Of a stretch of 5,002 nucleotides of DNA, positions 459 through 5,002 are shown piece by piece. A program made the position numbers and the translations under genes. The notes beneath the pieces are model-generated. The model was not told the DNA's origin, did no database searches, and was given only the letters and a program-made list of their open reading frames with translations. The DNA is from a virus (Duplodnaviria; Heunggongvirae; Uroviricota; Caudoviricetes). The stretch lies in IMG/VR virus record IMGVR_UViG_2675903396_000008; one strand, given 5' to 3'. Position 1 is the first letter of the stretch. The number at the start of each line of letters is the position of its first letter.

Positions 459-1043
459 ATGACCACTTTTACAAAAGAGCAGTTAATCAGTCATGTTAGT
501 GAAAATGTAAAGGCGATGAAATTTGCAGTAAAACAGACAGCATTCAAAAATTCTCTCGAGGCAATTGAGTTGGATTTAGCACTGGCCCTTGTTGCTCAGG
601 CTTCGCTGGAAGCAGAGCCCGTGCTTTATATGAATCGATTTACCGGAAAGACATTCTCACTGGAAGAGCAACCCGGTGCTGATAAGGAACCGGAAATATA
701 CGTGCCGCTATATGCTGCCCCGCCAGACAGCGCCGCCATGCTTCAGGCTGGAAACTTTCGGGAAAAGAAGGGTTCGTCAACCAATAATTTTCGGGAAATC
801 TCGGAAACGTCAACCAACTATCCGGTAACTCTGGATGGTTGGATAAGCTGTAGTGAGCGAATGCCGGATGACGGTCAGCACGTAATTATTTTATGTGATG
901 GCGCATTCGTTCTTTATGCGCAATATCGAGACGGTGAGTTTTTTGATGTAGTCCGTGATGGTGATGAATTTTTCGAAACACAGAGCCGCAATGTAACCGA
1001 CTGGATGCCGCTACCAGAACCGCCGCAGGAGGTGCGCCAATGA
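459..1043 (+). CDS. Phage protein, 194 aa, C-terminal region resembling the DUF551 family (WISCSERMPDDGQHVIILCDG...)
   Basis: ATG at 459 with AAGGAG at 447-452 (6-nt spacer); stop TGA at 1041-1043. An alternative in-frame GTG at 399 has AGGAGG at 386-391 and overlaps the upstream stop (GTGA). The ORF-track start at 330 overlaps the upstream gene and is rejected. DUF551 assignment is from memory. Confidence 0.6.
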   Translation: MTTFTKEQLISHVSENVKAMKFAVKQTAFKNSLEAIELDLALALVAQASLEAEPVLYMNRFTGKTFSLEEQPGADKEPEIYVPLYAAPPDSAAMLQAGNFREKKGSSTNNFREISETSTNYPVTLDGWISCSERMPDDGQHVIILCDGAFVLYAQYRDGEFFDVVRDGDEFFETQSRNVTDWMPLPEPPQEVRQ

Positions 1044-1123
1044 ACTGGCCTGAAGCATTTGCAATTACAGGCGTTGCTATGGCTATCGCTTTTTTAGTAT
1101 ATGTTATTTGTCGGTGGGGGTAA
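1040..1123 (+). CDS. Micro-ORF, 27 aa hydrophobic peptide (MNWPEAFAITGVAMAIAFLVYVICRWG), predicted single transmembrane helix
   Basis: ATG overlaps the upstream stop (ATGA at 1040-1043); AGGAGG at 1026-1031; stop TAA at 1121-1123. Too short for statistical gene calling; supported by the SD and coupling geometry. Confidence 0.4.
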   Translation: MNWPEAFAITGVAMAIAFLVYVICRWG

Positions 1124-1158
1124 AAACGTTCGCCGGGATTAACACCAAAGGAGGGAAT

Positions 1159-1263
1159 ATGTCGGATGATATTTTACTGGCAATGGAAGGTGCGCTGGCT
1201 GTTATTGCTGTTGTGGGCGTTTACTGCCTGGTTGTGTTTTTGATGGATCGACTAGGGAACTGA
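1159..1263 (+). CDS. Micro-ORF, 34 aa hydrophobic peptide (MSDDILLAMEGALAVIAVVGVYCLVVFLMDRLGN), predicted single transmembrane helix
   Basis: ATG at 1159 preceded by AAAGGAGGG at 1147-1155; stop TGA at 1261-1263. Confidence 0.45.
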   Translation: MSDDILLAMEGALAVIAVVGVYCLVVFLMDRLGN

Positions 1264-1271
1264 ATTCATTA

Positions 1272-1293
1272 CGATATGGGAATTCCCATATCG
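1272..1293. promoter_or_regulatory. Perfect 22-bp palindrome CGATATGGGAATTCCCATATCG; candidate operator for a dimeric DNA-binding protein, or an RNA hairpin
   Basis: Read directly from the sequence: the two 11-nt halves are exact reverse complements, centred on GAATTC. No T-run follows, so it is not a classical intrinsic terminator. It sits between the second micro-ORF and the hok locus. Confidence 0.5.
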
Positions 1294-1305
1294 GGTAAAA
1301 ACGGT

Positions 1306-1333: not shown

Positions 1334-1394
1334 TGCTGCGGGTGCTTGAGGCTATCTGCCTCGGGCATGAACACCAACGGCAGATAGAGAAAAG

Positions 1395-1460
1395 CCCCAG
1401 TTAACATTACGCGTCCGGCAAGACGCTTAACATTAATCTGAGGCCATATCTATGCTCTAC
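1395..1460 (-). ncRNA. sok: Candidate Sok-like antisense RNA covering the mok translation initiation region; boundaries approximate
   Basis: Inference from hok/sok architecture. A minus-strand promoter-like pair (-35 TTGCCT at plus 1495-1490, 17-nt spacer, -10 TAACCT at plus 1472-1467) would start transcription near 1460, antisense to the mok SD and start codon. I could not identify a terminator. Confidence 0.25.
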
Positions 1461-1664
1461 ACACGTAGGTTAGCCTCTTACGTGCCGAAAGGCAAGGAGA
1501 AGCAGGCTATGAAGCAGCAAAAGGCGATGTTAATTGCCCTGATCGTCATCTGTTTAACCGTCATAGTGACGGCACTGGTAACGAGGAAAGACCTCTGCGA
1601 GGTACGAATCCGAACCGGCCAGACGGAGGTCGCTGTCTTCACAGCTTACGAACCTGAGGAGTAA
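1452..1664 (+). CDS. mok: Mok-like leader reading frame, 70 codons, in frame with hok and ending at the same stop (N-terminal extension MLYTRRLASYVPKGKEKQA)
   Basis: ATG at 1452 is in frame with hok. The extension resembles my recollection of MokC (ML.T.R...K.KEK.AMKQ.K). In hok loci, mok translation is coupled to and required for hok translation. Confidence 0.5.
   Translation: MLYTRRLASYVPKGKEKQAMKQQKAMLIALIVICLTVIVTALVTRKDLCEVRIRTGQTEVAVFTAYEPEE
1509..1664 (+). CDS. hokD: Hok/Gef-family type I toxin, 51 aa (MKQQKAMLIALIVICLTVIVTALVTRKDLCEVRIRTGQTEVAVFTAYEPEE)
   Basis: ATG at 1509 with AAGGAGAAG just upstream; stop TAA at 1662-1664. The sequence matches my memory of E. coli HokD (RelF): single transmembrane helix, conserved C..R and TAYEP motifs. 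Family assignment is high confidence; the exact paralog is from memory. Confidence 0.85.
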   Translation: MKQQKAMLIALIVICLTVIVTALVTRKDLCEVRIRTGQTEVAVFTAYEPEE

Positions 1665-1732
1665 GAGACCAGGCGGGGGAGAAATCCCTCGCCACCTCTC
1701 ATGTGTCAGGCATCCTTAACGCACCCGCACTA

Positions 1733-1754
1733 AACCCGCTTCGGCGGGTTTTTT
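1733..1754 (+). terminator. Rho-independent terminator ending the hok transcript (stem AACCCGC / GCGGGTT, loop TTCG, T6 tail)
   Basis: Hairpin and T-run read directly from the sequence, about 70 nt after the hok stop. Confidence 0.65.
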
Positions 1755-4224: not shown

Positions 4225-4531
4225 ATGTTTGGAATCTTCAAAAAGAAAACCCGCAGAGCGGCAGCGGAAATTAAAAAGTTTGAGAAACGCGATCTGGCAC
4301 AGGCGGTGATTAACGCTGCATACCTGGTGGCCTATGCAGATGGTGAATGCGAGGCATCCGAGAAAGCGAAGATCGAACAGGTCTTACGTAATCAGCCTGC
4401 GTTGTCTGCGTTTACCTCGGAAATTAATGCGATTAGCGCAACTATTATCGGTCAGCTGGATACCAATTTTAAAATTGGTCGTCGTGCCGCGTTACGCGAG
4501 ATTGAGGATGTGAAACACGATACGCGTGAAG
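4225..4531 (+). CDS. TerB-like domain protein, N-terminal 102 aa; the 3' end runs into the N-run
   Basis: ATG at 4225 with AAAGGAA at 4211-4217 (7-nt spacer). The motif AAYLVAYADGECEASEKAKIEQVL looks like the TerB tellurite-resistance fold as I remember it. The ORF-track start at 4153 has no SD. Confidence 0.55.
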
Positions 4532-4588
4532 NNNNNNNNNNNNNNNNNNNNNNNNNNNNNNNNNNNNNNNNNNNNNNNNNNNNNNNNN
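4532..4588. other. Run of 57 N: assembly gap or masked sequence
   Basis: Read directly. Coding frames on the two sides differ, so the N-run length is probably a placeholder. Confidence 0.95.
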
Positions 4589-4789
4589 CGGTGTTCTGGG
4601 TCTTCGTCTGGAGAATCACCTGTGACGGTAAAACTGCGCCTGGCTGTGGCTGCACTCCTGCTGTTTCTGGTGGTGATGGTGGATTTCACCAGCAGAATCA
4701 TGTCGGTGCTGGCGGATGGGGTGCTGGTCTGCGGCATTGTGGTATTGCTGTGGCCGGTGATAAAAAGAAACAGCCTGCATAATGCTTGA
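4589..4789 (+). CDS. C-terminal fragment (67 aa visible) of a membrane protein (...LAVAALLLFLVVMVDFTSRIMSVLADGVLVCGIVVLLWPVIKRNSLHNA); the 5' end lies in the N-run. Probably the same gene as 4225-4531.
   Basis: Frame 2 gives a protein-like hydrophobic sequence ending at TGA 4787-4789. Frame 1, the continuation of the 4225 ORF across the N-run, gives Gly-rich low-complexity sequence and is rejected. Confidence 0.45.
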   Translation, partial: RCSGSSSGESPVTVKLRLAVAALLLFLVVMVDFTSRIMSVLADGVLVCGIVVLLWPVIKRNSLHNA

Positions 4790-4956
4790 TTTTTTTGTTT
4801 GCTGTTTATTAAAAACACTTCTGCATGGTGAATCCCCCTGTGCGGAGGGGCGATCAGCAACCAGGTATATGGGATAATCGCGGATTCAGGTGCTGATACT
4901 GAATTCACCGGGAGGCACCCGGCACCATGCAAGAAAAAGAATGTGCATGCAAACAT

Positions 4957-4980
4957 GCCCCTCTCCGGAGGGGCTTTTTT
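4957..4980 (+). terminator. Strong hairpin with T6 tail (GCCCCTC-TCCG-GAGGGGC-TTTTTT); terminator or attenuator
   Basis: Perfect 7-bp GC-rich stem read directly. The 3' arm GGAGGGG sits 7 nt before the ATG at 4981 and could serve as its SD, suggesting structure-gated translation. Confidence 0.5.
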
Positions 4981-5002
4981 ATGGGTAAAAAATGCCCGAA
5001 TG
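4981..5002 (+). CDS. 5' end of the next gene (MGKKCPN...), truncated by the window; alternative in-frame start at 4927
   Basis: ATG at 4981 follows GGAGGGG at 4968-4974. ATG at 4927 is in frame with GGAGG at 4911-4915, but that reading passes through the hairpin. Too short to identify. Confidence 0.2.

Follow-up and report, generated by a model that had tools for sequence, protein, structure and literature searches.

Two adjoining micro-genes for predicted single-pass membrane proteins upstream of hok/sok in an Escherichia coli lambdoid prophage

The IMG/VR record IMGVR_UViG_2675903396_000008 (Caudoviricetes) is a stretch of 5,002 nucleotides (nt), referred to here, as a whole, as the window. 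Between its DUF551 gene and its hok/sok toxin-antitoxin cassette lie two small open reading frames (ORFs), ORF1 and ORF2, encoding hydrophobic peptides of 27 and 34 amino acids (aa). The favored reading, to which a probability of about 0.6 is given, is that these are two genuine, unrelated micro-genes whose products are single-pass inner-membrane accessory modulators rather than type I toxins. That both are real coding genes is held with greater confidence. ORF1 and ORF2 appear to belong to different mobile modules that are juxtaposed in this lambdoid prophage of E. coli. ORF1 would represent a family of a known kind, the small single-pass membrane proteins of phages and bacteria, which is almost never annotated and of which no description was found in the sources searched. 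ORF2 is already catalogued, as an uncharacterised hypothetical protein and as a gene supported by ribosome profiling (RIBOseq). The two genes together take up 224 bp; they and their Shine-Dalgarno (SD) sites are as follows.

1027..1033, plus strand: SD site of ORF1, AGGAGGT, read from the sequence; within the final codons of the DUF551 gene, 7 nt 5' of the ATG.
1040..1123, plus strand: ORF1, gene for a predicted 27-aa single-pass membrane micro-protein of the M[NTS]WP[ED]AF...G...Y..CRWG family; ATG at 1040, TAA at 1121-1123, start/stop overlap ATGA.
1148..1154, plus strand: SD site of ORF2, AAGGAGG, read from the sequence; 4 nt 5' of the ATG.
1159..1263, plus strand: ORF2, gene for a predicted 34-aa single-pass membrane micro-protein; ATG at 1159, TGA at 1261-1263; RefSeq WP_001278447.1; allele of XECs145 of strain O157 Sakai.

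The ORF1 product is MNWPEAFAITGVAMAIAFLVYVICRWG and has a net charge of 0. Its hydrophobic stretch covers residues 6-24, with a mean Kyte-Doolittle value of 2.45 and a summed Hessa-scale free energy (dG) of -1.66 kcal. The ORF2 product, MSDDILLAMEGALAVIAVVGVYCLVVFLMDRLGN, has a net charge of -3 and a very acidic N-terminal tail, and its hydrophobic stretch at residues 13-29 has a mean Kyte-Doolittle value of 2.95 and a summed dG of -3.02 kcal. Each peptide has a single hydrophobic stretch of 17-19 residues, predicted to form one helix long enough to span the membrane. This agrees with the initial annotation, made from the letters of the DNA and a list of its ORFs, which described tandem hydrophobic micro-ORFs with strong SD sites, each product being essentially one transmembrane helix. 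Such a pair rarely arises by chance. In 5000 dinucleotide shuffles of positions 1020-1300, at least one qualifying ORF (ATG start, 25-60 aa, an SD-like site and a grand average of hydropathy of at least 1) was found in 0.7% and two were found in 0.04%. ORF1 and ORF2 are the only ORFs of the whole window with these properties.

ORF1 begins where the preceding gene ends.

459..1043, plus strand: upstream early gene, a DUF551 domain protein (Pfam DUF551, E=1.1e-20); coding sequence (CDS) WP_000206794.1 of the Prokaryotic Genome Annotation Pipeline (PGAP), at identical coordinates in the 100%-identical E. coli genome.

The sequence at 1040-1043 reads ATGA, and the ATG of ORF1 shares bases with the TGA stop of the DUF551 gene, as the initial annotation had read it. 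As a sequence arrangement this is a coupled gene pair: the overlap is present, the SD site lies inside the upstream CDS, and both are kept across homologues. The upstream gene has at least three unrelated C-termini (..PEPPQEVNQ, ..NGLISVEDVLR and ..NDLKNIEQEVNR), and ATGA and GGAGG are present in all; in the BP-4795 type, the overlap reads ATGATGA. Because these elements are kept behind at least three unrelated C-termini, ORF1 together with its SD site behaves as its own small module. The candidate explanation that ORF1 is the C-terminal part of the DUF551 protein was rejected, since the ORF1 frame differs and clustered "DUF551" proteins of 121 and 185 aa do not contain the ORF1 peptide. The 27-aa peptides share protein-collection clusters, and sometimes names, with "DUF551 domain-containing protein", and short "partial DUF551" entries such as GGESMTWPEAF... 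are misnamed contig-end fragments in the ORF1 frame.

The 27-aa ORF1 recurs in lambdoid and Shiga toxin (Stx) phages, in IncY (P1-like) phage-plasmids and in lytic Avunavirus phages. A tblastn search returned full-length homologues in 99 phage records, mostly at 55-70% aa identity. Among plasmid records, 181 have a homologue (174 are non-mobilizable plasmids), with E. coli, Salmonella and relatives as hosts. Among those listed, the plasmids are mostly ~90-100 kb, and the single plasmid inspected is an IncY (P1-like) phage-plasmid. The loci inspected were those of BP-4795, 933W, Stx2a_WGPS2, Stx2 II, the Avunavirus phages Av-05 and 24-2-1, a deposited "Actinobacillus phage" and the IncY plasmid. 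At every one of them, the ORF1 homologue begins at the stop codon of the preceding CDS and occupies a gap free of annotation. Peptides like these had been said to be routinely missed by annotation. This is true of ORF1, which, itself or as a homologue, lacks an annotation in all 11 annotated records inspected, but not of ORF2, which PGAP annotates as hypothetical protein WP_001278447.1 or WP_001278450.1. Few GenBank records call ORF1; one is AOM45384.1, "bacteriophage protein".

The alleles of ORF1 vary as those of a protein-coding gene would. Counts from the pattern scans of IMG/VR, here and below, cover the loci listed (at least 120 per scan), mainly E. coli prophages. With a DNA anchor on codons 1-7 only, the frame is exactly 27 aa long in 100 of 118 complete ORFs, the set holds 53 distinct alleles, and TAA or TGA ends the alleles at the identical position. 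With an anchor wholly outside ORF1, at the 3' end of the DUF551 gene, an intact 27- or 28-aa ORF1 was found in 83 of 155 loci; several additional loci have same-length MSWPDAI/MSWRDAI variants, and the remainder have other genes in the slot. In this second set, the ratio of nonsynonymous to synonymous differences (pN/pS; pairwise Nei-Gojobori sums, tree-free) is 0.39 in the ORF1 frame, against 0.93 and 1.49 when either of the other frames is read. At the first, second and third codon positions, entropy is 12.9, 9.1 and 25.9, the last being double the others. Even where 30-45% of residues differ, the alleles retain their 27-codon length, both terminal motifs and the ATGA coupling. The conserved positions are M1, W3, P4, E/D5, A6, G11, a small residue at 15, Y/F21, R25, W26 and G27.

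On the 3' side of ORF1, hok comes next in 52 of 94 loci (directly in 37), and other genes take its place in 42 of 94, such as a DUF4222 gene in the BP-4795 type; ~45% of the ORF1 copies have no hok within 700 nt. From this neighborhood, ORF1 appears to be tied to the upstream early gene of the ea22/eaA/DUF551 type, not to hok. E. coli K-12 lacks an ORF1 homologue in its CPS-53 prophage, whose DUF551 gene is yfdS, and start-site profiling data from K-12 are therefore unusable for this region. A search for related loci with the DUF551 protein in species-representative genomes returned one locus, from a metagenome-assembled genome labelled Segatella copri, which was uninformative.

Peptides of similar design were observed elsewhere in IMG/VR. 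Peptides of 23-34 aa with an M[NT]WP[ED]AF start and a hydrophobic helix occur in viral contigs with a guanine-plus-cytosine fraction of 0.40-0.66, many of them directly behind a long ORF (loci L016, L025, L071, L073, L083, L087, L106, L108, L119 and L121). These MxWPEAF-type peptides may hint at a wider family beyond coliphages, and some of the anchor matches are due to chance. Other small hydrophobic ORFs fill the stop/start-overlapped slot after DUF551 genes (loci L307, L308, L311, L312, L314 and L319), with peptides such as MNKCNALLYAMVIGFGLVAGIRVYITWESLINLAWSAIRG (40 aa) and MDSFAKYTIIDWIAFIQVLLIWFYMAY..., and the slot seems to collect membrane peptides.

ORF2 is 97% identical to its O157 Sakai allele. 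Under the name "hypothetical protein [Escherichia coli]", its exact sequence is listed on 279 contigs in the protein collection. Of 5426 complete E. coli genomes, 673 have the ORF2 segment, which is matched a median of 3 and at most 6 times per genome; it is almost absent from deposited phage genomes (four weak matches). An anchor on ORF2 codons 12-23 listed 123 loci in IMG/VR that fall into two clades. Clade A reads MSDD[IL][SL]LAMEGALAV[IV]AVVGVYCLVVFLMDRLGN with an ATG start, and its alleles in E. coli genomes are mostly >92% identical. Clade B reads (M)LVLKCALAIAAVMAIYCL[AV][VI]VLM[DEN][RH]LSD, is 29 aa long and has a GTG start 5 nt after AGGAGG. A phmmer search with ORF2 against 1.84 billion representatives gave seven matches of 76-100% identity over the matched stretch, the query being too short to reach clade B. 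Identity between the clades is ~47%, several of the residues they share are encoded by synonymous codons, and the stop lies at the same codon in 121 of the 123 loci. The pN/pS ratio between them is 0.43-0.50, and entropy peaks at the third position; the discrimination is weaker than for ORF1. In two sub-lineages of clade B with differing spacers (L128, L024, L042 and others), TTGAA[TG]-N17-CATATT is present ~35-75 nt 5' of the ORF2 SD site. A separate promoter for clade B ORF2 at this site (TTGAAx-N17-CATATT) was set aside as a hint only, as it scores 8/12 and was not reported by the promoter scan.

Ribosome occupancy of the Sakai allele has been documented. XECs145 (WP_001278447.1), the same gene as ORF2, was found to be transcribed and ribosome-covered, was called "real" by machine learning and was predicted to be located in the inner membrane (Hucker et al. 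2017, PLoS One, PMC5597208). Its peptide ends in MSDDISLAMEGALAVIAVVGVYCLVVFLMDRLGN, and the ORF2 peptide of the window differs from it by one residue (PMC5597208). The published values, in reads per kilobase per million (RPKM), with the ribosome coverage value (RCV), are as follows (PMC5597208).

XECs145, lysogeny broth (LB): RNA RPKM 79.1; RIBOseq RPKM 346.1; RCV 4.35; ORF coverage 0.99.
XECs145, brain heart infusion (BHI), control: RNA RPKM 121.3; RIBOseq RPKM 150.1; RCV 1.14; ORF coverage 0.84.
XECs145, BHI, stress: RNA RPKM 73.3; RIBOseq RPKM 1.1; RCV 0.01; ORF coverage 0.37.

Only ORFs of at least 30 aa were considered in that study (PMC5597208), so ORF1 could not be reported. Neither peptide is present in the EDL933 RIBOseq supplements or in the supplements of the Enterobacteriaceae microproteome catalogue, and a literature search for the motif "WPEAF" gave no relevant paper. 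The proposal that these are real, overlooked peptide genes is upheld by the length and stop kept across diverged alleles, by changes that are mostly third-position or conservative, and by the RIBOseq signal of ORF2. The comparison of synonymous with nonsynonymous change, which had been suggested as a check, points the same way for both genes.

ORF2 lies directly upstream of the toxin-antitoxin cassette, and the features of this interval are the following.

1118..1128, strand not assigned: left copy of an 11-bp direct repeat, GGGTAAAAACG, including the ORF1 stop codon.
1272..1293, strand not assigned: perfect 22-bp palindrome CGATATGGGAATTCCCATATCG with a central EcoRI site, between the ORF2 stop and the hok promoter/-35; a putative hairpin or dyad site.
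1293..1303, strand not assigned: right copy of the 11-bp direct repeat GGGTAAAAACG, adjoining the hok -35 region.
1340..1754, plus strand: hok/sok type I toxin-antitoxin cassette, with the hok mRNA leader, the hok CDS at 1509-1664 and a terminator at 1732-1751; "hokD" in PGAP.

The cassette is matched by the Rfam sok/hok-leader model at 1340-1514 (111.7 bits), and the hok CDS by Pfam Hok/Gef (E=1.2e-23). The spacing from ORF2 to the hok mRNA 5' motif on its 3' side is fixed in 114 of the 123 loci, with the end of ORF2 a fixed few dozen bases 5' of the hok promoter. Upstream of ORF2, ORF1 is present in 46 of 47 loci of clade A and in 10 of 76 of clade B. Among hok-anchored loci missed by the ORF1/ORF2 pattern searches, ORF2 is present in 15 of 59; in some others, only its final codons or the palindrome remain, joined to unrelated genes. 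At L136, L156, L178, L198 and L217, an intact ORF2 of clade B (...LMERLSD) was observed without hok, with a convergent gene and terminator downstream. Since there are hok loci without ORF2 and one lineage with ORF2 but no hok, the linkage is strong and not obligatory in either direction. As far as the layout of these loci goes, ORF2 is physically tied to the hok/sok cassette and travels with it. The connection with Hok that the initial annotation had raised is thus sustained for ORF2 and lost for ORF1. No description of the fixed linkage or of the second ORF2 clade was found in the sources searched.

The repeat GGGTAAAAACG flanks a 175-bp segment that contains ORF2 and the palindrome. In 933W (L004), TAAAAACGGTTTGCGG, the hok -35 region, follows the ORF1 stop directly, at a distance of 11 nt. 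This arrangement suggests that the segment is a mosaic joint, formed by insertion or deletion at the microhomology. The palindrome is retained 5' of hok in loci without ORF2 (L249 and L251), and a variant in L237 has one compensatory change of A-T to G-C. As RNA, it would fold into a hairpin of -21.2 kcal/mol (z=-4.0), and no T-run follows it. A 17-nt sequence just 5' of the ORF2 SD site, GGGATTAACACCAAAGG (1135-1151), is 82% identical to GGCATGAACACCAACGG (1364-1380) in the first hairpin loop region of the hok leader; this likeness may be chance or the trace of a duplication. Two minus-strand sigma-70 promoter-like matches, 9/12 each, run from 1183 to 1156, opposite the 5' end of ORF2, and from 1124 to 1096, opposite the 3' end of ORF1. 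Between 900 and 1900 there are five sigma-70-like sites, against 1.5 expected from shuffles. At E<=1, Rfam gave no RNA family over 1040-1263, and a structured RNA was dropped as an explanation, the fold of 1020-1340 reaching only z=-1.9. A sub-threshold match to isrK (31.2 bits; gathering score 50) at 1673-1754 lies over the 3' end and terminator of the hok mRNA.

How the two peptides would act can be sketched from these features. ORF1 would be a 3' passenger of a mosaic early gene of the ea22/eaA/DUF551 type, and its translation, by coupling or re-initiation, would be expected each time the early operon is transcribed. With its acidic N-terminus (E5) and C-terminal R25, it is predicted to be oriented N-out/C-in. 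Conservation is focused at the predicted membrane interfaces (W3-P4-E/D5-A6, Y/F21 and R25-W26-G27) and in a central G11-x3-small15 packing motif, a pattern that suggests binding to another membrane helix of the host or the phage. ORF2 would be a single-pass peptide with its own strong SD site, tolerated at appreciable expression. As its Sakai allele is ribosome-occupied in uninduced cells, the host probably tolerates it, and acute toxicity is unlikely.

KdpF, CydX, AcrZ and MgtS exemplify small inner-membrane modulators, single-helix proteins shorter than 50 aa that bind another membrane protein and whose genes are often coupled to, or co-transcribed with, a larger one. They are the favored functional analogy for ORF1 and ORF2. 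Sequence similarity to them is absent; the weak matches to KdpF (E=0.024) and SecE (E=0.069) fall far short of the curated thresholds. As the DUF551 protein encoded ahead of ORF1 looks soluble and varies in its C-terminal domain, a fixed next-door partner is unlikely. Antiholins and T4 Imm are tiny, membrane-embedded, phage-encoded proteins that come from phage operons and serve in lysis timing and superinfection exclusion. In contrast to lysis proteins, ORF1 and ORF2 are located in early or accessory regions (nin-like here; exo-xis/ea in Stx phages), not in lysis cassettes, and neither has similarity to any PHROG of known function. Pfam, PHROG and NCBIfam gave no significant family for either peptide, and in curated families neither was found. 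Weak matches to PTR2, KdpF, SecE, phrog_38566 and phrog_4612 were discarded, being below cut-offs and reflecting hydrophobic composition.

Several points weigh against this reading. The published start of XECs145 is an ATG further upstream that gives 54 aa and overlaps the end of ORF1, while the SD-linked ATG gives the 34 aa used here, and the XECs145 reads may multi-map among prophage copies. The support for translation of ORF1 is comparative (27-codon frame, pN/pS 0.39). Degraded ORF1 copies occur, namely a 25-aa allele with a stop at W26 (four loci), an allele reading M-T-stop (L252) and a decayed copy (L309). The pN/pS ratios are moderate (0.4-0.5), and one ORF2 off-frame gives a similar ratio of 0.51-0.65. 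The ORF2 remnants fused to other genes indicate that hok does not need ORF2. Membrane insertion, topology and a binding partner are predictions from sequence alone, and the argument for non-toxicity draws on expression level.

Type I toxins such as Hok/Gef (PF01848), Ldr, TisB, ShoB, DinQ and Ibs are likewise small, hydrophobic, single-helix peptides of the inner membrane, and the initial annotation had proposed that the peptides could be small membrane toxins. One or both would then be toxins, or lysis or depolarising peptides, adding to Hok in host killing or lysis. Size, hydrophobicity and the single helix fit this proposal. The peptides also adjoin a hok/sok cassette of a functional type, to which ORF2 is linked; hokW-sokW of Sp5 is a functional type I system, with mitomycin C-induced, RecA-dependent production of HokW that speeds phage release (Takada et al. 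2021, PMC8621323). The opposite-strand promoter-like matches could in principle yield antisense RNAs. However, translation of type I toxins is normally repressed, and here both SD sites are strong and unoccluded, ORF1 has an ordinary gene as its coupled partner, and healthy cells translate ORF2, its Sakai allele being highly ribosome-occupied in exponential, uninduced culture (RCV 4.35 and RIBOseq RPKM 346 in LB). The Rfam scan over 1040-1263 showed no antisense RNA family or translation-blocking leader, and hmmscan against Pfam gave no Hok/Gef match for either peptide. The net charges of -3 and 0, the several copies of the ORF2 segment per genome, and the presence of ORF1 in lytic phages and in loci free of a toxin cassette also speak against toxins. 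The toxin proposal is accordingly not favored, and we consider it unlikely.

A role in cis would make the peptides themselves irrelevant: transcription or translation through ORF2 (or through ORF1 in the 933W type) and on into the promoter of hok would adjust hok/sok expression, for instance by occluding that promoter or by yielding a 5'-extended hok mRNA during induction. The very short, fixed distance from the ORF2 stop to the hok -35, and the 11 nt in 933W, favor such a role, as does the lack of an intrinsic terminator in between, where there is only the palindrome without a T-run. The RecA-dependent induction of HokW (PMC8621323) would fit read-through from the early operon; the paper on hokW-sokW does not mention a small ORF just upstream of hok. 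Against a cis role, constraint is at the amino-acid level, with synonymous and conservative changes dominating and the stop kept in ORF2 clades that are ~47% identical. Moreover, one lineage has an intact ORF2 without hok, ~45% of the ORF1 copies are without a nearby hok, and outside the pattern searches ORF2 is found at only about a quarter (15/59) of hok loci. This explanation is judged quite improbable.

A bolder proposal goes beyond accessory modulators and is put forward as a long shot. ORF1 would be a pan-coliphage family of 27-aa inner-membrane effectors (M-x-W-P-E-A-F, helix, C-R-W-G) binding a specific host membrane machine, and ORF2 would be a partner of Hok at the protein level; with Hok, they might form a multi-peptide module that times host killing, phage release or exclusion in Shiga-toxin phages.

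It is very unlikely that these are non-functional frames persisting through the recent spread of mosaic prophage DNA, in which hydrophobic ORFs arise easily: the near-identity of clade A ORF2 alleles, pN/pS only moderately below 1, the broken or shortened copies and the lack of a curated family would fit, but ORF1 keeps its length, motifs and ATGA at 30-45% divergence across lambdoid phages, phage-plasmids and Avunavirus, variation is mostly at the third codon position in the ORF frame only, two such ORFs are rare in shuffles, and ORF2 has RIBOseq coverage.

The window is the delayed-early (nin-like) region of a lambdoid prophage of E. coli. A prophage of E. coli 2013C-4974 matches positions 1000-1300 at 100% identity, and its PGAP gene order is ydaT-like, ydaV, DUF1627, DUF977, DUF551, the 34-aa hypothetical protein and hokD, followed by a 70-aa hypothetical protein, DUF1367, DUF1364, DUF1133 (Q-like) and three tRNAs. 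A Pfam search of the window proteins identified DUF551 (459-1043), Hok/Gef (1509-1664), DUF1367, YbcO and DUF1133/antiterminator Q. The 70-aa ORF at 1940-2152, between hok and DUF1367, is hypothetical protein WP_001356604.1 and has a match in phrog_1813 (E=5.8e-33), a family without an assigned function. The small RNA family STnc100 (Rfam RF02076) has a full-length match beyond the tRNA cluster, at 4794-4986 (145.8 bits, E=2e-33). A TerB-like ORF starting at 4225 is broken by a run of N, and an open frame of strongly hydrophobic coding, VTVKLRLAVAALLLFLVVMVDFTSRIMSVLADGVLVCGIVVLLWPVIKRNSLHNA, comes directly after this run (4532-4588 and 4623-4782 for the two features together).

In E. coli O157 and other Shiga toxin-producing E. 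coli, virulence is shaped by Stx-converting and related prophages, whose early accessory regions are rich in uncharacterised genes. At least 99 deposited phage genomes and 181 plasmids or phage-plasmids carry ORF1. Deletion or cloning of neighboring loci could remove or include it unnoticed; an example is hokW-sokW in Sp5, where the ORF1 stop is ~11 nt from the hok promoter. Annotating ORF1, and placing ORF2 in the hok neighborhood, would provide two candidate micro-proteins of the host inner membrane, or modifiers of Hok-dependent killing.

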